A DNA stretch of 64,000 nucleotides from sequence record PX880102.1; one strand, given 5' to 3'. The notes under the pieces were generated by a model, which saw nothing but the letters and a program-made list of their open reading frames with translations, did not search any database and was not told where the DNA came from. Positions 25,608 to 63,388 of the stretch are shown piece by piece. The DNA is from a phage. Both the position numbers and the translations under genes were made by a program. Numbering within the stretch: position 1 is the first letter of the stretch; the number at the start of each line of letters is the position of its first letter.

Positions 25608-25611
25608 CAAT

Positions 25612-25641
25612 GGGGACCGAAAGGTCCCCATATTTTTATTT
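25612..25641 (+). terminator. Rho-independent terminator after gene 54
   Basis: GGGGACC-GAAA-GGTCCCC then ATATTTTTATTT. Confidence 0.8.
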
Positions 25642-25926
25642 ACGGAATGAAATAAAAGCAGCAACTGAAGCAACTAAACTGTCTTCAATATAAACTTCAA
25701 TTTTTACCGGAGCTTCTGACTCAAATTTACCTGTTACTACACCTTGGAAAATGCTTTCAGTCTGTTCTGGCTTTGAAAAATTTTCAGAAGGAAAAATTCC
25801 GAACTTTTTATCTGTTCCAAAAATTTTGATAAATTCATCATAAACTGCTTCATTAAAAGCGTTATCAGCAGGAATAACGCCTTCAACTACAAGTTCTTGA
25901 CCTAAAAAGCGTAAAGAAGATTTCAT
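25636..25926 (-). CDS. Small hypothetical protein (96 aa) downstream of the Alt paralogs
   Basis: ORF with its own early-type promoter and GAGGA ribosome-binding site. Confidence 0.55.
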   Translation of the reverse strand: MKSSLRFLGQELVVEGVIPADNAFNEAVYDEFIKIFGTDKKFGIFPSENFSKPEQTESIFQGVVTGKFESEAPVKIEVYIEDSLVASVAAFISFRK

Positions 25927-25934
25927 TTTGTGTT

Positions 25935-25987
25935 CCTCATGTTATGTCAGTAAGACTACTATAACACAACACGAGGGACTTGTAAAC
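25935..25987 (-). promoter_or_regulatory. Early-type promoter (GTTTAC -35, TATAGT -10) plus leader with GAGGA Shine-Dalgarno; copy A of repeated cassette
   Basis: Minus strand GTTTAC-18 nt-TATAGT, then leader ending in GAGGA before ATG at 25926. Confidence 0.6.
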
Positions 25988-28044
25988 TACATCTTGAACT
26001 TTTTAGACATTCCGTTGATGTTAACCAGAGAAGCCAAGATTTGAGAAACTTCGTTTTCCTCTTCTTTTGATTCTTCTACAAGGAATTGATTAAACCCAGC
26101 CATTGGACGAACTTCACCAGTTTCCATTAGATGATCGCCATCATATACTGATTCTTCTAATTGTTCAGAAGGAGGAACGATTGTGCCTTCGATTAGATAC
26201 TTGTTATAAGCAGTTTCTTTCATCATGTACGTGCTTACTTTATTAATCTTCAACAAAATTCCACGCGGTAGAATAACTTCAGCTTCTGATGGAAATCCTG
26301 ATAAATGACCTGGAACGATAACTTTGATTCGCTCAGCCCCTTTAATTACCATACCTACACTAGTTTCAGCATCTTCATTAGCATATGTAGAATGACTACC
26401 CATATGCATTAAATCTTCGGCATCAACGGAACCTTCTCCTTCACCAGAAAATACTGCACCGGAATCATCTAGAGCCATATAGTTTTTACCATGCTCACCG
26501 AAGATATTTGGTTTAAGCGATGTTGATACGAAGTTCTTGAAATAGAACATTTTATTTTCAATATTATGGCGTAAAGTTTTAAAAGTAACTTCTTGACCAC
26601 GATAAAGCGTAGTTCCCGGAGGAAGAACTGATCCTTTGGCGAATGCAGAATCCATTGTCTCGATGTGTTTAATAGCTCGTTCCATGTATTCTTCACGGGT
26701 AGAATCTGGTTTACCCAAGAGGAACGAGTTCATTTCAACATATGAATCTGCACAATAATCTTCAATTGCATCAGACTCAGCCTGAGTCAGTCCTTTTGGA
26801 GTTACTTCGGTGCTTGCGTATTCATATGCCTGAGCAGCAGATTCATTAATCAATTTATAAATGCCATTCATGACAAATTGAATAATAGCTACCTTTTCGT
26901 CTGGTGTGGCTTTAGAACCTTTAACTAAATCATTGATAATTTTCTTAATAACATCAAAGCTATTAGAAATATTAATGTCAGCGAGATCGCTTAAAATTTT
27001 ATCGGTTTTATAATCAAAGAATTCTTTATTCTTTAAATATTCTTGAGAACCTTGATGTGTTATATCGCTCTGCAGTCTGATAGACGGATCACGTAAACGT
27101 GCATGGGCCAATGCAATATGATTTCGGAAGCTTTCTAGTTCATAATCGTTAGATTTAAAACGAGAAGCACTTCTCATACCACCGATAGCTCCTTTGCCGA
27201 AGTTTGAACCAATCTGAATAACGCCAGAGTTCATTGGTCCTTCTGCTTTATATACCGGAACTTTAGATTCAAACTCTTGATATTTCTTAGCAGCGAAGCT
27301 ATCACCCTGTAGCGAAGCATCGACAGTAGAATATTGAGCTTGTGCTGCTAATCGACGACTAATTTTAGTTTTCTGAATAACAGCTTGATCCGTGCGCTTA
27401 TCATTTTCTAAAGCAATAGAAGCAGCAACAGCAACAGCTTTAGGAACAGCATTACCTGTTTTAACATCTACATAAACATCACCAACCTTTGATTCAACTT
27501 TTGTGAATAACTCAGTTGAAATAGGAGGTACACCTGGAATGTCTTCTAAATTGGCATTTTTACGGTAAACCATAATATATGCATACTTTTTATCGTAATC
27601 CCAGATTTCCTTTAAAAGAACATATCGACCTACTCCTTTAGTACGTACTAAACGGTCAGCAATAACTTGCATTTGACGAGCAGCGCCATTTGTTTTACTC
27701 TTTAGTACGCGGAATAGGCATGCGTCAATTTTATACTGTTTCATTGTTTGAAGAGCAGTATCAAAAACTGCATTAATGACACCAATTGGATTTCCACCCA
27801 AGTTTTTAAGTTTAACTAATGATAGTTTCTCATTAACACCTATCATTACGATATGCATCATTTTATCGCCTGGCTTAACGTTTTTATTTGTATCACCGCC
27901 AGAGGTGTATGTACAAAATCTAAATCCAGGAAGCACGCTTTCTTCACCGGCTTGAATAGCAAAAATTTGAGGTATTTTATGCTTAGGATTTAAGTTAACA
28001 ACCGGCGCCGAAGCGCCGTCAAATAATTCTGTAATAAGTTCCAT
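25987..28044 (-). CDS. Alt-family ADP-ribosyltransferase paralog (685 aa)
   Basis: N-terminus MELITELFD and first ~230 aa closely similar to neighbouring Alt; C-terminal R-S-E motifs YRGQ / FVSTSL / EAEVILPRG. Confidence 0.8.
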   Translation of the reverse strand: MELITELFDGASAPVVNLNPKHKIPQIFAIQAGEESVLPGFRFCTYTSGGDTNKNVKPGDKMMHIVMIGVNEKLSLVKLKNLGGNPIGVINAVFDTALQTMKQYKIDACLFRVLKSKTNGAARQMQVIADRLVRTKGVGRYVLLKEIWDYDKKYAYIMVYRKNANLEDIPGVPPISTELFTKVESKVGDVYVDVKTGNAVPKAVAVAASIALENDKRTDQAVIQKTKISRRLAAQAQYSTVDASLQGDSFAAKKYQEFESKVPVYKAEGPMNSGVIQIGSNFGKGAIGGMRSASRFKSNDYELESFRNHIALAHARLRDPSIRLQSDITHQGSQEYLKNKEFFDYKTDKILSDLADINISNSFDVIKKIINDLVKGSKATPDEKVAIIQFVMNGIYKLINESAAQAYEYASTEVTPKGLTQAESDAIEDYCADSYVEMNSFLLGKPDSTREEYMERAIKHIETMDSAFAKGSVLPPGTTLYRGQEVTFKTLRHNIENKMFYFKNFVSTSLKPNIFGEHGKNYMALDDSGAVFSGEGEGSVDAEDLMHMGSHSTYANEDAETSVGMVIKGAERIKVIVPGHLSGFPSEAEVILPRGILLKINKVSTYMMKETAYNKYLIEGTIVPPSEQLEESVYDGDHLMETGEVRPMAGFNQFLVEESKEEENEVSQILASLVNINGMSKKFKM

Positions 28045-28047
28045 GAT

Positions 28048-30144
28048 TTATCCTTGAACGAACTTGTAAGGCATGTTTGCAATATCTATGCAAGATGCAA
28101 TAATTCCAAGAGATGATTCTACTTTTTGTTTAACATTTGATGAAACAAATGATGCAAAATCAACTCTGTCTTCTATTTCAATATCACCTGTCATTGCAAC
28201 TACTTCACCGGTTTCCATTAAATGGTCTCCGTCATAGATTACCGATTCGGTGAGCTCTTCCGTGGTCATAACTTCAGCTTGAATGAGTTTTGTATTATTA
28301 GATGTTGTTCCGTCATTATTAGAAGCATCAGTTATTTTATTAACTTTGACCATCAATCCACGCGGTAGAATAACTTCAGCTTCTGTTGCTATTCCGAGAC
28401 TTCCTGGATATACAACATTAACTTTATGAGCTCCATCAATTGCCCATCCTATTTGAACTTTAACGTATTCAGGATTTTCTTTATACGCTCTTATTTCGTT
28501 TGGATTAATAGTTATTCCTTCTTCATTTTTATCAACTGTTAATTCATTGCGAGCTTCTGGTTCTAAAAGACCAATACCAGCATGTGTGATTCCAAAACGT
28601 CCAAAAATGATAGGAGTTAAAGAAGTAGATACAAAATTTCTGAAGTAGAACACTTTATTTTTAACTAACGCTTCATATATAGGAGCAGTCATACTTTGAG
28701 CACGATAAACTGTAATGCCTTCTGGTATACGGTCACCATTTTCAAAAGCTGAATCTAAGTTATTTATAGCAGATTCAATTTCTTTTTCACTCATTACATC
28801 ATATCGTTCTGGATTGTAACGACCTAAAAGAAGATTATTGATGTCAGTATATCCTGAACCGCAATATTCTCTAATGCCGCGCTTTTGTGATGGAGTATAT
28901 TTAGAACCATCACGGGCAATAGTAATATCAATCATTGGACCTGCACCAATTCCAGAAAAGCTATAAATCATTCGTTTGAGGAATTTAGTTTTTGCTGCGT
29001 TCCAGGAATTTTTAGTTATTTCTTCCCAGACTTCATCTGGCTGTCCTTTACGTGTTTTATTATGTTTATCAAGCCAATTATCTTTATATTCTTCAAAGAG
29101 TTGATTAACAGCTGCTGCGTATTTTTCTAAACATTTTATTGAAGTAGTTGGTTCATTTTTAATCGCATTAAGAATTACATCTTTAATTTTTTCAGAAACT
29201 TCACCAACCTCACTCATTGGAAAGAATTTATAGTCATAATGAAGTTCATCTGCAGTTCCTTCAGCAATAATTTTTGCTGCCTTAGTTTTAGAAGCCAATG
29301 AATTAATTCCAAGTTTCATTTCTTCCGCTTCGGGAATTAAAGGAGCTGTAGCAGGTTTATTGAAATTAGCTGCGGTAGATTCATACTTCTGGAATAATTC
29401 ACTTTCAAATCTAGAAGATTCCAATGACTGACTTTGTGCAATTGCTCTACGGGAAATTTTAACTTTAACGATTACAGCTTGGTCAGAACGTTTATCGTTT
29501 TCTTGTGCAATAGATGCTGCAATTGCCTCATTTTTAGTTACTTGAGCTCCGGTATCTTTATTGATATAAACATCACCGACCTTCGATTCAACTTTAGTAA
29601 AGAGCTCTGTACTAATTTCCGGAACTCCTGGAATGTCTTCTAATGATACATTTTTGCGATGTATAAGAATATATGCGTACTTTTTATCGTAATCCCAGAG
29701 TTCCTTAAGAAGGACGTATCTGCCACCTGAACGACTACGGATAAGTCTATCAGCAATAAGTTGAATTTGACGAGCTTGACCAGCAGTTTTAGACTTAAGA
29801 ATACGGAGCATACAGGCATCAATTTTATACTGACGCATCGTCTGCATCGCAACAGTAAAAACTGAATTGATGTAATTAATTGGGCTTGGACCGAGACCTT
29901 TTAATTTAGCAATTGAACCTTTAGCAGTTAATGTAAAAGGAACAATATGCATCATTTTATCACCCATTTTTAAATCGCGATTAGTATCACCTCCAGATGT
30001 ATAGGTACATAAACGAAAGCCTGGTTGTTCAATTGCGTCATCAACATGAACTGAAAAAATTTGCGGTATTTTCTTCTTTGGATTTAAGTTTGTAATCGGA
30101 AGAGTAGTATCTTCGTCAAATAATTCTGTAATGAGTTCCATCAT
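28048..30144 (-). CDS. alt: Alt ADP-ribosyltransferase (698 aa), packaged head protein
   Basis: Alt-like sequence with YRAQ / FVSTSL / EAEVILPRG motifs; late promoter and Shine-Dalgarno directly upstream; adjacent to ligase gene. Confidence 0.8.
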   Translation of the reverse strand: MMELITELFDEDTTLPITNLNPKKKIPQIFSVHVDDAIEQPGFRLCTYTSGGDTNRDLKMGDKMMHIVPFTLTAKGSIAKLKGLGPSPINYINSVFTVAMQTMRQYKIDACMLRILKSKTAGQARQIQLIADRLIRSRSGGRYVLLKELWDYDKKYAYILIHRKNVSLEDIPGVPEISTELFTKVESKVGDVYINKDTGAQVTKNEAIAASIAQENDKRSDQAVIVKVKISRRAIAQSQSLESSRFESELFQKYESTAANFNKPATAPLIPEAEEMKLGINSLASKTKAAKIIAEGTADELHYDYKFFPMSEVGEVSEKIKDVILNAIKNEPTTSIKCLEKYAAAVNQLFEEYKDNWLDKHNKTRKGQPDEVWEEITKNSWNAAKTKFLKRMIYSFSGIGAGPMIDITIARDGSKYTPSQKRGIREYCGSGYTDINNLLLGRYNPERYDVMSEKEIESAINNLDSAFENGDRIPEGITVYRAQSMTAPIYEALVKNKVFYFRNFVSTSLTPIIFGRFGITHAGIGLLEPEARNELTVDKNEEGITINPNEIRAYKENPEYVKVQIGWAIDGAHKVNVVYPGSLGIATEAEVILPRGLMVKVNKITDASNNDGTTSNNTKLIQAEVMTTEELTESVIYDGDHLMETGEVVAMTGDIEIEDRVDFASFVSSNVKQKVESSLGIIASCIDIANMPYKFVQG

Positions 30145-30164: not shown

Positions 30165-30172
30165 TATTTATA
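30165..30172 (-). promoter_or_regulatory. Late promoter (TATAAATA on minus strand) for alt
   Basis: Plus TATTTATA 21 bp upstream of alt ATG; GAGAGGA Shine-Dalgarno between. Confidence 0.7.
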
Positions 30173-30177
30173 AAATT

Positions 30178-30195
30178 AAAGGCCCGAAGGCCTTT
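30178..30195 (-). terminator. Hairpin terminator between the 62 aa ORF and the alt late promoter
   Basis: AAA-GGCC-CGAA-GGCC-TTT palindromic hairpin flanked by A/T runs. Confidence 0.55.
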
Positions 30196-30382
30196 AATAA
30201 TCTATTGGTAAGAGAGTACGGTATATTTCAAACTTTGGACCTTTTTCATAGGCATCAAATGTTTCTGTGAATTTATTATAAGCATATGCATCTATAAATT
30301 CAATCATAATTTGTGATACAGAAGTAGAAACATCTCCACCTTCTTTTTGAGCAACGACAATTGTTTCTAAGTAAGCTTTCAT
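30194..30382 (-). CDS. Small hypothetical protein (62 aa) between ligase and alt
   Basis: ORF overlapping ligase stop by ATGA, followed by hairpin terminator. Confidence 0.45.
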   Translation of the reverse strand: MKAYLETIVVAQKEGGDVSTSVSQIMIEFIDAYAYNKFTETFDAYEKGPKFEIYRTLLPIDY

Positions 30383-43463: not shown

Positions 43464-44642
43464 TTAAAAATATTTTTTAAAACTCATCATAACTTTATCA
43501 TCAACGTCATTATCAATCTGTGCTACAAGATAAGATGACAGTTCTACTTCTTGTGGCGCGGATTGAACATTATCAGAATTAAGATATTCACGAATCCAAG
43601 GATACGGATGTTTAACCGGAGCATCGGTAATTGGGCATGGAAGACCGCACTGTTTCATACGAGATACAGTTAAGTAATCAATAAAGCTCCACATGCTATT
43701 TGTATTTAATCCAGGAACATCGCCATCTTTAAATAAATGAACTGCCCAGTCTTTTTCTTGGCGGTTAACTTCCATGAAAATATCAACTGCTTCTTGTTCA
43801 CACTCTTGGGCGATTTTAACCCATTCATCACCATCAGTACCAAGTTGAAGTTGACGAATAATATATTGGGTGCCTTTAAGGTGAAGCTGCTCATCACGTG
43901 CAATGAACTTCATAATCTTAGCATTACCTTCCATGATTTCCATGTTCTTATGGAAGTTAAAGGTACATGCGAAAGATACATAAAAACGAATAGCTTCCAA
44001 TGCGTTGATTACGTGCAGGCAGAGGTAAAGAGATTTCATTAGCTCACGCTTCCAATATGTCTCATGCTCAATAGCATCTTCAATAACGTCTTCGTCTGCA
44101 TTAATTTCTTTTTGGTATTCGATATCAGCTTTAGCGTTTTCCCAATAACGAGTTTTAATCAGAACATCATCATAATAACGTCCAATGGATTCAGCACGTT
44201 TCATAATAGCTTCATCTAATACAATTTCATCAAATACCTTCGATGGATCAGTATAAAGATTTCGCATGATATGCGTATATGAACGGCTGTGAATAGTTTC
44301 ACTAAAAGTCCACGTAGCAACCCATGTATCAAGGCTTGGGTCTGAAATTAATGACATAAGTACAGCAGACGGCGCACGACCCTGAATGCTATCCAAAAGT
44401 GATTGATATTTCAGATTATTAGTAAAAATATTTTGCTGATACTGAGGAAGCTTATTAAACTGTGCAGCATCCATCATCAAGTTTACTTCTTCAGGACGCC
44501 AGAAAAATGATAATTGCTTTTCGGTCAAATCTTCAAAAACTTTATGGCGGTGAATATCATAACGCGCAATACCAAGACCTGAACCAAAAAACATAGGTTC
44601 TTTTAAAACATCAACTGGATTTGTATTAAAAACTGTGCTCAT
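43464..44642 (-). CDS. nrdB: Ribonucleotide reductase small subunit NrdB (392 aa), uninterrupted
   Basis: Class Ia R2-like sequence; continuous ORF without intron. Confidence 0.92.
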   Translation of the reverse strand: MSTVFNTNPVDVLKEPMFFGSGLGIARYDIHRHKVFEDLTEKQLSFFWRPEEVNLMMDAAQFNKLPQYQQNIFTNNLKYQSLLDSIQGRAPSAVLMSLISDPSLDTWVATWTFSETIHSRSYTHIMRNLYTDPSKVFDEIVLDEAIMKRAESIGRYYDDVLIKTRYWENAKADIEYQKEINADEDVIEDAIEHETYWKRELMKSLYLCLHVINALEAIRFYVSFACTFNFHKNMEIMEGNAKIMKFIARDEQLHLKGTQYIIRQLQLGTDGDEWVKIAQECEQEAVDIFMEVNRQEKDWAVHLFKDGDVPGLNTNSMWSFIDYLTVSRMKQCGLPCPITDAPVKHPYPWIREYLNSDNVQSAPQEVELSSYLVAQIDNDVDDKVMMSFKKYF

Positions 44643-47515: not shown

Positions 47516-48376
47516 TTATACCGCCATCTTTCCTTTAATTGACGGATGAGATACATAGTTGTTAAGAACAAAATTATGAGGCTTTGCAAATTGACTCAAC
47601 CAAAATACCTGCGATTCTGTGTCCCATTCATCAAATTCATCTGGAAATTTTAATTGTAATTCGCATAAATCCATAGGTTCACGACGTAAAATTTCTTTAC
47701 ATTGTTCTACGTGATTCATATAGATATGAGTATTACCACCAGAAAATATCAAATCTCCAGGAATAAGATTACACATTTTAGCTACAATATGAACTAACGT
47801 AGCATATGATGCAATATTAAATGGAAGACCGAGGAAAACATCTACCGAACGTTGATACCACTGCAAATCTAAATAGCCATTACGCACATTAAACTGATAG
47901 AACATATGGCAAGGCGGTAATGCCATATATTTAAGTTCAGCTGGATTCCATGCAGAAACAATTTGACGCCTATCATTTGGCAATTTTTTAATACGATCAA
48001 CAACTTCTATAATTTGGTCTACACCGCCAAAATCACGCCATTGTTTTCCATAAATTGGACCAAGTTCACCGCTATGGTATCCTAAATCTTTTGCTTGATT
48101 TTCGTAATTTTCATCCCAAACTGTTTTGCCTTGGATTAACGAATCATGTTGAATTAATCGTAAATCATTGACATTTGTGCTTCCTGATAAAAACCATATT
48201 AGCTCAGCAATGCATGCATTCCAGGCGAGCTTTTTAGTTGTTACTGCAGGAAAGCCTTTAGTTAAATCCCAACGCAATTTAGTACCGAACAGAGCAATTG
48301 TTCCTGTGCCCGTTCGGTCATCGGTTTCATAGCCATTTTCAAAAATGTCTTTAATTAAATCTTGGTATTGTTTCAT
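47516..48376 (-). CDS. td: Thymidylate synthase (286 aa), uninterrupted
   Basis: 286 aa ThyA-like, active-site region LPPCH; continuous ORF without intron. Confidence 0.95.
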   Translation of the reverse strand: MKQYQDLIKDIFENGYETDDRTGTGTIALFGTKLRWDLTKGFPAVTTKKLAWNACIAELIWFLSGSTNVNDLRLIQHDSLIQGKTVWDENYENQAKDLGYHSGELGPIYGKQWRDFGGVDQIIEVVDRIKKLPNDRRQIVSAWNPAELKYMALPPCHMFYQFNVRNGYLDLQWYQRSVDVFLGLPFNIASYATLVHIVAKMCNLIPGDLIFSGGNTHIYMNHVEQCKEILRREPMDLCELQLKFPDEFDEWDTESQVFWLSQFAKPHNFVLNNYVSHPSIKGKMAV

Positions 48377-60058: not shown

Positions 60059-63000
60059 ATGGCTACTTTAAAACAAATACAATTTAAAAGAAGCAAAACT
60101 GCAGGAGCACGTCCTGCCGCTTCAGTATTAGCCGAAGGTGAATTGGCTATAAACTTAAAAGACCGTGTACTTTTTACTAAAGATGACCAAGGAAATATTA
60201 TTGATCTGGGTTTTGCTAAAGGCGGTAGTATTGACGGGAATGTTATTCATACAGGCAATTATAACCAAACTGGCGATTATACTTTAAATGGTGTCTTCAC
60301 TCAGACTGGTAATTTTAATTTAACTGGTATTGCTCGAGTAACTCGCGATATTATTGCCGCTGGGCAGATTATGACTGAAGGCGGAGAACTTATTACAAAA
60401 AGTTCAGGTACAGCGCATGTTCGTTTTTTCGATAACAATAGTCGCGAACGCGGAATCATTTATGCCCCGGCTAATGATGGTTTAACTACACAAGTACTTA
60501 ATATCAGGGTTCAAGACTACGCCGCTGGTAGCGAAAGCACTTATGCATTTTCAGGCAGTGGACTATTTACTTCACCTGAAGTATCAGCATGGAAATCTAT
60601 TTCGTCTCCACAAATTCTAACCAACAAAGTCATTACTAATAATAAATCTACGGGTGATTATGACATCTATTCGATGGCAGACAATGTTCCATTGTCTGAA
60701 AGCACTACTGCTATTAATCATCTTCGTGTCATGCGTAATGCCGTTGGTTCTAGTATTTTCCATGAAGTTAAAGATAATGATGGAATAACTTGGTATGCAG
60801 GTGATGGACTTGACACCTATCTTTGGTCATTTACTTGGAGCGGCGGAATTAAATCGAGTCACTCAATTTCTATTGGTTTAACACCTGGTAATAAAGATTA
60901 TTCAATATTAGGACCATCTAGTATTGCTTTAGGAGATAATGATACTGGATTTAAATGGCATCAAGATGGATATTATTTTAGCGTTAATAATGGAACAAAA
61001 ACGTTTTTATTTAGTCCTAGCGAAACAACTAGCCTAAGAAAATTTGTAGCTGGATATTCTACTAACGGAACCGATTTAACTACTCCTCCAACTGAAAACT
61101 ATGCATTAGCCACTGTTGTTACTTACCATGATAATAACGCATACGGCGACGGTCAAACTCTTTTAGGATATTATCAAGGCGGTAACTATCATCATTATTT
61201 CCGCGGTAAAGGTACTACAAACATTAATACTCACGGCGGTTTGTTAGTTACTCCTGGTAATATTGACGTTATTGGTGGTTCTGTTAATATCGATGGTAGA
61301 AATAATAATTCAATTTTAATGTTTAAAGGCTATACCATGGGTCAAAGCTCCGTTGATAACATGTATATAGCTGTTTGGGGAAATACTTTTACTAATCCAA
61401 GTGAAGGCACCCGTAAAAATGTCATGGAAATTTCTGATGATATTGGATGGATGCATTATATTCAACGAACAACTGCAGGTAAAGTCGAATCGGTTCTAAA
61501 CGGCACCCAGATTGTTAATGAAAACTTGACCGTAGTAAAAAATGCTACATTTGATGGTACAATCAGCGCAGCAGGTGAAATTTCATCTGGGGCTGTGAAT
61601 GCGCTTCGTATTTGGAACGCAGATTATGGAGCTATTTTTAGACGTTCAGAAGGCAGTCTTCATATTATTCCAACTGCTTACGGTGAAGGTAAATATGGCG
61701 ATATCGGTCCACTTCGCCCGTTTAGTATGGCTTTAGATACCGGTAAAGTTACTATTCCAGATTTACAATCAAGTTACAATACGTTTGCTGCTAACGGCTA
61801 TATTAAATTTGTTGGTCATGGAGCGGGTGCCGGCGGTTATGACATTCAATATGCTCAAGCGGCTCCTATTTTCCAGGAAATTGATGATGATGCTGTAAGC
61901 AAATATTATCCTATTGTTAAACAGAAGTTTTTAAATGGTAAAGCCGTTTGGTCTTTAGGTACTGAAATTAATTCGGGTACATTCGTTATTCATCATCTGA
62001 AAGAAGATGGTTCACAAGGCCATACGTCTCGTTTTAATCAAGACGGTACTGTTAACTTCCCAGATAACGTTTCTGTCGGCGGCGGTGAAGCTACTATTGC
62101 TCGCAATGGTAATATCTGGTCTGATATCTGGAAAACGTTTACTTTAGCAGGCGACGTAACTAATATTCGCGATGCAATAGCTACTCGTGTTGCTAAAGAA
62201 GGTGATACGATGACCGGTAGGTTGACTTTATCTGCTGGAAATGATGCCCTTGTTTTAACTGCAGGCACGGGCGCTTCATCGCACATCCGTAGTGATGTAG
62301 GTGGTACAAATAATTGGTTTATAGGCAAAGGCGGCGGCGACAATGGTCTAAGTTTTTACAGTTACATTACACAAGGCGGTGTGAACATAACAAATAACGG
62401 CGAAATAGCGCTTTCTCCTCAAGGACAAGGAGCGTTTAATTTTAATAGAGACCGCCTTCATATAAACGGTACACAATGGACCGCACACCAGGCTGGCGAT
62501 TGGGGAAATCAATGGCGCCAGGAAGCTCCTGTATTTGTGGATTTTGGTAATGTCGGTAATGATAGTTATTATCCTATTATTAAAGGAAAATCTGGTATTA
62601 CTAATGAAGGGTATATATCTGGTGTAGATTTTGGTATGCGACGCATTCCTAATAACTGGGCACAAGGTATTATTCGTGTAGGTAATCAGGAAAACGGTTC
62701 CGACCCACAAGCTATCTTCGAATTCCACCATAATGGAAACATGTGCGTTCCTGACATGGTTAAAGCTGGAGTAAGAATATCAGCCGGTGGAGGTGACCCT
62801 GTATGGACAGGCGCATGTGTTGTTATTGGTGATAATGACACCGGATTAGTTCATGGTGGTGACGGCCGAATCAATATGGTTGCCAATGGTATACATATTG
62901 CAAACTGGGGAGCAGGCTATCAATCTCATCCTGGGCTTTGGGATTCAACCGGTGCTTTTTGGACAGAAGTTGGAAGAGCTATCGTTTCTCATGGGCATCT

Positions 63001-63388
63001 CGTTCAGGCAAATGATAGTTATTCAACGTTTGTCCGTGATGTTTATGTCCGTTCTGATATTCGTGTTAAAAAAGACCTTGTTAAATTTGAAAATGCTTCT
63101 GAGAAGCTTTCAAAAATTAATGGTTACACTTATATGCAGAAGCGAGGCCTAGATGAAGAAGGTAATCAAAAATGGGAACCTAATGCCGGTTTAATTGCCC
63201 AAGAAGTTCAAGCTATTTTACCTGAATTAGTTGAAGGCGATCAGGATAGTGAAGCTTTACTTCGTTTGAACTATAACGGTGTAATTGGTTTAAATACAGC
63301 TGCAATCAATGAGCATACTGCAGAAATTGCAGAACTTAAATCAGAAATTGAAGAACTTAAAGCATTAGTTAAATCATTGTTAAAATAA
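60059..63388 (+). CDS. 37: Long tail fibre distal subunit gp37 (1109 aa) with C-terminal self-cleaving chaperone-like domain
   Basis: Position after 36; C-terminal SDIRVKK motif and coiled-coil tail; followed by gene 38. Confidence 0.9.

Follow-up and report, generated by a model that had tools for sequence, protein, structure and literature searches.

The window considered here is a stretch of 64,000 nucleotides (nt) of phage DNA (sequence record PX880102.1), and this study concerns two adjacent genes on its minus strand that encode members of the Alt family of ADP-ribosyltransferases (ARTs). ORF-A, the orthologue of T4 alt, is an open reading frame (ORF) of 698 amino acids (aa) at 28048-30144 as delimited mechanically, and of 697 aa at 28048-30141 when read from its second ATG. 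ORF-B encodes 685 aa at 25987-28044 and represents a second Alt paralogue, the intact counterpart of T4 alt.-1 and alt.-2. By its sequence, the source phage is a Tequatrovirus. The 5-kb region around the pair matched 545 phage records with a top identity of 98.7% (record counts in this study are taken from BLAST identity bands, redundant entries included). The gene order is T4-like, with 29, 48 and 54 on the plus strand followed by alt.-3, ORF-B, ORF-A, alt.1 and DNA ligase on the minus strand. The pair is flanked by DNA ligase (gene 30)/alt.1 on one side and by alt.-3/gene 54 on the other, and runs opposite to the baseplate genes. Because both genes are on the minus strand, ORF-A, which adjoins alt.1, is the first of the two to be transcribed. 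The functional statements below are built on sequence, predicted structure and comparative patterns, and promoters and terminators were called from matches to consensus sequences.

The original prediction described two adjacent ORFs that are closely similar over the N-terminal ~230 aa and divergent thereafter, and this description holds. ORF-A and ORF-B are 41% identical overall (BLASTP, E = 3e-161). When aligned together with T4 Alt in a three-way alignment, they were 67-68% identical across the N-terminal domain (55-75% per 40-aa block over aa 1-240). Identity fell to 7-20% in the middle region, the ~190 residues past position ~240, and was 15-47% per block in the catalytic region, where the ART domains are ~37% identical. 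The identical DNA run said to occur in both genes was also found: a 28-nt run is present exactly twice, at 26261-26288 and 28358-28385, with 0 copies expected from shuffles, and it encodes EAEVILPRG in both genes.

The proposal that both ORFs are full-length Alt-family enzymes was supported by several models. Matches to phrog_802 run end to end (residues 1-696 at 1e-272 for ORF-A and 1-685 at 1e-255 for ORF-B), the N-terminal domain belongs to PF26846 (Tevenvirinae_ADPRT, an assignment precomputed for the cluster representative P0001, which is 99% identical, and for relatives), and the Pfam model ADPrib_exo_Tox (PF03496) scores 129.9 bits (1e-37) in ORF-A and 74.6 bits (8.5e-21) in ORF-B against a gathering cut-off of 23.4. 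The R-S-E motifs are intact as had been claimed, with the catalytic Arg, S-T-S and E-x-E kept in ORF-A (YRAQ 479, FVSTSL 503, EAEVILPRG 587) and in ORF-B (YRGQ 481, FVSTSL 505, EAEVILPRG 587), and these residues are conserved in all 12 paralogues compared, which come from five genera. The E577A variant of T4 Alt is catalytically inactive (PMC11404850); this residue, E576 in the numbering of NC_000866, aligns with E589 of both ORFs, the second Glu of E-x-E. Neither glutamate is lost on alignment, and the T4 ORFs to which ORF-B aligns are the hypothetical alt.-1 and alt.-2 fragments rather than an ORF of established non-transferase function. The predicted ART domain is structurally similar to solved members of the R-S-E clade (C2/C3/VIP2-like), the closest being Vis, C3 and iota. 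Every sequence-level feature of the Alt family that could be tested was present in both proteins.

Both genes are under strong purifying selection. In pairwise comparisons of four Tequatrovirus orthologues, the ratio of nonsynonymous to synonymous substitution rates (dN/dS) was 0.03-0.06 for ORF-A and 0.02-0.07 for ORF-B; within ORF-B it was 0.018 in the N-terminal domain, 0.063 in the middle, 0.025 in the ART domain and 0.020 in the C-terminal tail. Since selection is purifying and the catalytic residues are intact, both genes are probably functional.

ORF-A begins with an N-terminal domain and continues through a helical middle and an ART domain to a C-terminal propeptide. Its N-terminal domain (aa 1-240, 29422-30141 on the minus strand, as are all features of the pair) includes the ITE-6 prohead-protease site, and is followed by an effector cassette (aa 241-632, 28246-29421) that comprises the helical middle and the ART domain and ends at the LTE-632 motif. 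The catalytic motifs map to 28696-28707 (YRAQ), 28618-28635 (FVSTSL) and 28357-28383 (EAEVILPRG). In ORF-B, the N-terminal domain (aa 1-238, 27331-28044) has a predicted alpha/beta fold and carries an ITE-6 site. It is followed by the helical middle (aa 239-470, 26635-27330), which is the most divergent part between the paralogues, by the ART catalytic domain (aa 471-631, 26152-26634), which ends at the LEE-631 motif, and by a putative C-terminal propeptide (aa 632-685, 25990-26151). The catalytic motifs of ORF-B map to 26593-26604 (YRGQ), 26515-26532 (FVSTSL) and 26260-26286 (EAEVILPRG). An AlphaFold2 model of ORF-B (predicted local distance difference test, pLDDT, 75.5; predicted template modelling score, pTM, 0.71) places the alpha/beta N-terminal domain at 15-195, the helical middle at 200-470, the ART domain at 475-625 and disorder at 630-663, the last overlapping the propeptide. 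The N-terminal domain was modelled with pLDDT 85 and pTM 0.83, and the model suggests a topology like that of the GNAT superfamily of acyl-CoA N-acyltransferases.

A sequence search of the PDB returned no Alt structure; ORF-B had no match, and ORF-A had only weak matches to CdtA and iota toxin. When the domains were searched separately against Pfam, neither N-terminal domain was matched even at E <= 10, and the middle regions matched only the edge of the ART model. A profile search with the N-terminal domain over 1.84 billion representatives gave 73 clusters, in which the domain is always N-terminal. Ten atypical matches from this search were scanned against Pfam; five carried an ART domain at or near the gathering score and none carried another credible domain. 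Against viral models, Foldseek matched the N-terminal domain to Alt homologues and, remotely (E 1e-8 to 1e-4, template modelling score ~0.5), to large uncharacterised proteins of unrelated phages, some of which are annotated with other enzymatic domains. We considered the N-terminal domain as a generic delivery module for other cargo and did not adopt this idea, for which the remote Foldseek matches are the only basis. The domain is most likely an Alt-specific module for incorporation into the head core. Four proteins from the profile search, P0182 (1,142 aa), P0184 (541 aa), P0180 (485 aa) and P0187 (347 aa), have an Alt-type N-terminal domain and no Pfam domain elsewhere, and may carry divergent or different cargo; P0182 and P0180 have two copies of the N-terminal domain each.

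Comparison with T4 suggests different histories for the two genes. ORF-A resembles T4 Alt (NP_049811) in genomic position, late promoter, R-S-ExE motifs and both cleavage motifs of the gp21 protease, and is 70% identical to it overall. At aa 1-240 and 629-697 the two proteins are 97-100% identical (93-100% at the nucleotide level). In contrast, the ORF-A cassette at aa ~241-628, which covers the middle and the ART domain, is only 17-76% identical to T4 Alt per 30-aa block, with third codon positions near saturation and sharp breakpoints. Judged by these alignments, ORF-A is the alt orthologue and is mosaic relative to T4, with a different cassette. ORF-B shares the four-part architecture and the family models of T4 Alt, but is 41% identical to it overall and belongs to a different effector clade.

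The closest T4 relatives of ORF-B are instead the small ORFs alt.-1 and alt.-2 (NP_049810 and NP_049809), which occupy the same locus and are broken in T4, whereas the gene is intact here. In a DNA alignment, the T4 alt.-1/alt.-2 segment corresponds to ORF-B at 97.2% nucleotide identity over its first 349 nt and last 11 nt. The T4 copy has lost one A from the A-run at window position 27885, which causes a frameshift, and it has lost the stretch equivalent to 25998-27696 (minus), a deletion of 1,699 bp bounded by the direct repeats CTAAAGAGT and CTAAAAAGT (9-bp). The PHROGs of T4 alt.-1 and alt.-2 (phrog_23015 and phrog_15247) match ORF-B at aa 1-56 and 62-117 (2e-40 and 3e-38, respectively), and match it far better than they match ORF-A. 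On this sequence evidence, ORF-B is the intact form of T4 alt.-1/alt.-2, and T4 lost the gene by a single-nucleotide frameshift plus the 1,699-bp deletion. The T4 record takes alt.-1/alt.-2 for an old duplication of the initial part of alt. Because both the DNA alignment and the PHROG matches tie the fragments to ORF-B, they are better read as a decayed full-length paralogue than as a partial duplication.

A T4-type late promoter box, TATAAATA, is found at 30165-30172 (minus), 21-24 nt upstream of the ORF-A start. It is called from its match to the consensus and from its conservation, as it stands at the same place in RB9, ECO07P3, phage 107, T4 and SP18. Ahead of it lies a hairpin, AAAGGCC-TTCG-GGCCTTT followed by a T-run (30178-30195, minus), which was read directly from the sequence and is absent from the list of the consensus scan. 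This GC-rich hairpin is likely to end transcription of the upstream early/middle unit; Nolan 2006 (PMC1524935) described a conserved terminator ahead of alt. It overlaps the stop codon of alt.1 (62 aa, 30194-30382, minus), a gene that has a Pfam match to 'Phage_blade' (PF24647, 7.5e-29).

The 5' region of ORF-A has a GAGAGGA ribosome-binding site followed by two ATGs. The second ATG (30141), giving 697 aa, is the likelier start because it is better spaced and yields the MELITE start found in T4 Alt and in the 697-aa annotation of RB9. The TAA stop of ORF-A (28048-28050) is separated by 3 nt from the ATG of ORF-B (28042-28044), and a Shine-Dalgarno sequence for ORF-B, AAGGA (28051-28055, minus), is embedded in the final codons of ORF-A. 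RB9 and phage 107 have exactly the same junction, CAAGGATAAATCATGG, and the junction in Dhakavirus is TAAATG, with the stop abutting the start. No terminator-like site was found between the genes in a consensus scan of the minus strand, and ORF-B has no late box of its own within 700 nt upstream, so it would rely on read-through. A second TATAAATA occurs inside ORF-A (28761-28768, minus), ~717 nt upstream of ORF-B. ECO07P3 shares it and RB9 lacks it, and it was rejected as a functional late promoter since this absence makes it probably fortuitous.

The original prediction had assigned a late promoter only to the downstream copy. The box does precede the 698-aa gene, but this gene is downstream in plus-strand coordinates only and is transcribed first. 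The arrangement suggests that TATAAATA heads a late unit of two genes. Because ORF-B would be read through from the ORF-A promoter and has its own Shine-Dalgarno sequence, it would not be a silent copy for want of a promoter.

In T4, Alt belongs to the prohead core at ~40 copies per head and enters the cell along with the DNA; cutting by the gp21 protease after ITE-6 and LTE-619 yields a protein of 68.2 kDa (PMC5694885, PMC9026906). ORF-A has ITE-6 and LTE-632 motifs at positions aligned with the T4 Alt sites. ORF-B has ITE-6 and LEE-631 at the aligned positions, and LEE fits the Leu/Ile-x-Glu consensus. The C-terminal motif is followed in both ORFs by a conserved SV(I)YDGDHLMETGE block. The predicted mature masses are 70.1 kDa for ORF-A and 69.1 kDa for ORF-B, and the same calculation gives the published 68.2 kDa for T4. 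Because prohead-protease motifs are conserved at both ends, it is reasonable to think that both proteins are packaged and processed. A literature search found no published virion proteome for a Tequatrovirus with two alt genes.

The tandem arrangement is already known and is annotated in hundreds of phage genomes. Nolan et al. (2006; PMC1524935) noted duplications of alt, full-length in 44RR and as the alt.-1/alt.-2 fragments in T4. Existing annotations include "Alt-like RNA polymerase ADP-ribosyltransferase (x2)" in many RefSeq records as well as alt_1/alt_2, alta/altb and alt/alt'. The annotated pairs JS98 alt/alt, Bp7 alt/alt', SP18 alta/altb, RB9 alt plus "alt.-2" (the latter annotated at full length) and ime09 have the same layout between alt.1 and alt.-3. 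Tandem pairs occupy the same position in Dhakavirus (JS98, Bp7), Gaprivervirus (SP18, alta/altb) and Biquartavirus (UP87), and a Krischvirus has one full alt gene plus a short ORF. ORF-B itself was found at >=90% identity in 402 phage records. The cassette of ORF-A type is present in 319 records and that of T4 type in 174. Combinations vary among phages: ORF-A-type with ORF-B, T4-type with ORF-B (phage 107 has a T4-type Alt alongside an intact ORF-B), and ORF-A-type with T4-type in Bp7, which has no ORF-B-type cassette. The second gene of JS98 has a cassette orthologous to that of ORF-B (48-58% identity), and SP18 carries the two cassette clades in the opposite order.

We compared 12 sequences by distance-based neighbour-joining trees with bootstrap and by domain-wise identity matrices. 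For the N-terminal domains, the grouping follows the genome: ORF-A and ORF-B join T4 Alt (100%), and the two UP87 copies pair with each other (100%). The cassettes group across genera, with 100% support each for ORF-A with Bp7_A, T4 Alt with Bp7_B, and ORF-B with JS98_B. They fall into two deep clades, one with T4 Alt, ORF-A, JS98_A and both Bp7 genes (100%; 94% when SP18_B is included), and the other with ORF-B, JS98_B and SP18_A (98%). The incongruence of the N-domain and cassette trees shows only that the domains have different histories. The ART domain of ORF-A is 96% identical to that of the first Bp7 gene in protein sequence (82-93% in nucleotide and 57-83% in third-position identity), whereas the N-terminal domains of this gene pair share ~48% protein and 42-64% nucleotide identity. 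This difference indicates, from the sequences, that the cassette moved between genera fairly recently. These comparisons are most simply read as a modular design, in which a genome-specific N-terminal domain and C-terminal tail would flank effector cassettes that are swapped by homologous recombination, and in which two old effector lineages have apparently been maintained side by side.

The likeness of N-terminal domains within a genome may be due to gene conversion, or to repeated duplication with cassette replacement. Between the paralogues, third-position identity in this domain is 50-57%, and identical codons make up 57% at conserved residues against 48% elsewhere, a contrast too small to show recent gene conversion. 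Four proteins (P0003, P0004, P0005 and P0007) that appeared to be ORF-B orthologues of 88-95% identity proved to be hybrids, ORF-A-like at first and ORF-B-like afterwards, with a single switch point in each, at residue ~53, ~108, ~190 or ~222. Three of the hybrid contigs were retrieved from metagenome (Logan) data (L010:4001-6055, L011:4001-6061 and L012:4001-6061), and in each of them alt.1 and alt.-3 flank only one alt gene. Sequence that is 100% A-like gives way to 100% B-like sequence where the paralogues share exact words of 17-21 nt. The hybrid junction was absent from the isolate genomes in a collection of 50,697 records searched with the whole gene and two junction probes. The hybrids could be deletions by unequal recombination or assembly collapses of the tandem repeat.

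Taken together, these data make it quite probable that the locus is a two-gene late unit encoding two distinct and functional arginine-type mono-ADP-ribosyltransferases of the Alt family, probably directed at different host targets. Both genes would be transcribed from the TATAAATA promoter ahead of ORF-A, and ORF-B, only 3 nt behind ORF-A, would be translated from its own Shine-Dalgarno sequence. The N-terminal domain (~240 aa), which follows the phage genome, most likely incorporates each protein into the prohead core. There, gp21 would trim after ITE-6 and after LTE-632 in ORF-A or LEE-631 in ORF-B, to leave enzymes of ~70 and ~69 kDa. Both would then be injected with the DNA and would ADP-ribosylate host proteins on arginine. 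ORF-B would represent a second, old effector lineage, lost in T4 through the frameshift and deletion described above. Different host targets for ORF-A and ORF-B are the best-supported hypothesis, and probably the correct one, because the effector cassettes are deeply divergent and are conserved independently across genera.

Several points weigh against this explanation. Sequence divergence is the one line of evidence for distinct targets, and the transcription, translation, packaging, cleavage and activity of both proteins are deduced here from sequence. The C-terminal site of ORF-B is LEE, compared with the LTE mapped in T4. In our literature search, no study came up that addresses what the second paralogue does, what it targets or whether it is present in virions; ADP-ribosylation of the alpha subunit of host RNA polymerase and of other host proteins is known only for T4 Alt. 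Finally, T4 lacks ORF-B and still grows, and even alt is non-essential in T4, so that any role of ORF-B would be accessory.

That T4 does well with one copy also fits an explanation by dosage, in which both enzymes modify the same host proteins and ORF-B either raises the amount of injected transferase or serves as a back-up. The two proteins do have their family, the arginine-specific ExE motif type and the predicted delivery route in common. A redundant copy would, however, not be expected to differ as these do, with middle regions 7-23% identical and ART domains ~37% identical. Moreover, each cassette lineage has been conserved in its own right across genera, without homogenisation, whereas within a genome the N-terminal domains are kept similar, and the combinations of cassette types vary among phages. 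We therefore regard redundancy as unlikely. Another possibility is that ORF-B is mainly a structural protein of the prohead core, or a pseudoenzyme whose ART domain is no longer catalytic. Alt has been described as a head-core component besides being an enzyme (PMC11404850), and the Pfam ART score of ORF-B is below that of ORF-A (74.6 against 129.9 bits). With its catalytic residues intact and a dN/dS of 0.025 across the ART domain, we consider this very unlikely. Equally improbable is an ORF-B that acts on a non-canonical substrate (NAD-capped RNA, where NAD is nicotinamide adenine dinucleotide, or nucleic acid or small molecules): T4 ModB, an R-S-E ART of the same phage group, is reported to RNAylate proteins (bioRxiv 10.1101/2021.06.04.446905), and we found no assay of the ORF-B cassette lineage in the literature, but nothing in the sequence favours such a substrate, and both the ExE motif and the nearest structures (Vis, C3, iota) are those of protein arginine/asparagine transferases.

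Two distinct transferases thus remain the preferred explanation, and the pair refines a known system rather than revealing a new kind of system. What is added here is the identification of ORF-B as the parent of T4 alt.-1/alt.-2 together with the exact lesions, the finding that both genes are constrained and that both proteins retain both protease motifs, and the placement of ORF-B in a separate cross-genus effector clade within a family whose cassettes appear to be exchanged between genera. Knowledge of injected phage ADP-ribosyltransferases comes mostly from T4 Alt, and T4 proves to be a reduced case. A second intact enzyme of a different effector lineage is present in most sequenced Tequatroviruses (~400 of ~545 records), and the first gene carries at least two cassette types. 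If the targets do differ, the early take-over programme of the common therapeutic T-even phages would be broader and more variable than the T4 model. The clean modular boundaries (aa ~240 and ~630) are also natural junctions for engineering head-delivered cargo.

A broader picture seems to us plausible, though short of probable. It would unite three elements: an ORF-B lineage with host targets of its own, an alt locus that works as a cassette-exchange system, and an N-domain fold that could mark a wider class of head-delivery modules. The lineage would be the second cassette clade, made up of ORF-B, the second alt of JS98 and SP18 alta, and would have been overlooked since T4 deleted the gene. 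Exchange would use the N-terminal domain and the C-terminal tail as recombination flanks, with cassettes swapped between paralogues, phages and genera. The wider class is suggested by the GNAT-like fold and by the remote structural relatives in large proteins of unrelated phages. If this picture were true, the targets of ORF-B might serve counter-defence or take-over.

Other systems offer partial parallels. The bacterial R-S-E toxins Vis, C3bot, iota Ia, CdtA, VIP2 and Certhrax have the catalytic fold and the R / S-T-S / E-x-E site in common with Alt. Unlike Alt, they are without the Tevenvirinae N-terminal domain and the helical middle, and their delivery depends on secretion or binary toxin components rather than on a phage head. 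The T4 internal proteins IPI-III and the polymorphic toxins appear to follow an analogous logic, with a conserved packaging or delivery part and exchanged variable cargo. IPI-III use a capsid-targeting peptide of 10-20 residues, whereas Alt has a folded domain of 240 aa; the likeness is one of analogy only, with no homology shown.

Some further observations concern the surroundings of the pair and the rest of the window. Just past the ORF-B stop and ahead of alt.-3, a promoter of sigma-70/T4-early type was found at 25958-25986 (minus; TTTACA-17-TATAGT, extended TG). The gene alt.-3 (25636-25926) matches Pfam DUF5498, and between it and the convergent gene 54 lies a hairpin with a 9-bp stem (25610-25631) that has a terminator score on both strands. 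The genes for thymidylate synthase (286 aa, 47516-48376, minus) and the ribonucleotide reductase small subunit (392 aa, 43464-44642, minus) are uninterrupted ORFs over the full Pfam profiles. In T4, the corresponding genes td and nrdB are interrupted by group I introns; this phage is therefore without group I introns at these sites. At its C-terminal end, the distal long-tail-fibre-like protein (1,109 aa, 60059-63388, plus) carries a Peptidase_S74 'chaperone of endosialidase' domain (aa 999-1058). The protein is apparently a variant of gp37 with an intramolecular chaperone, unlike T4 gp37, which has 1,026 aa.

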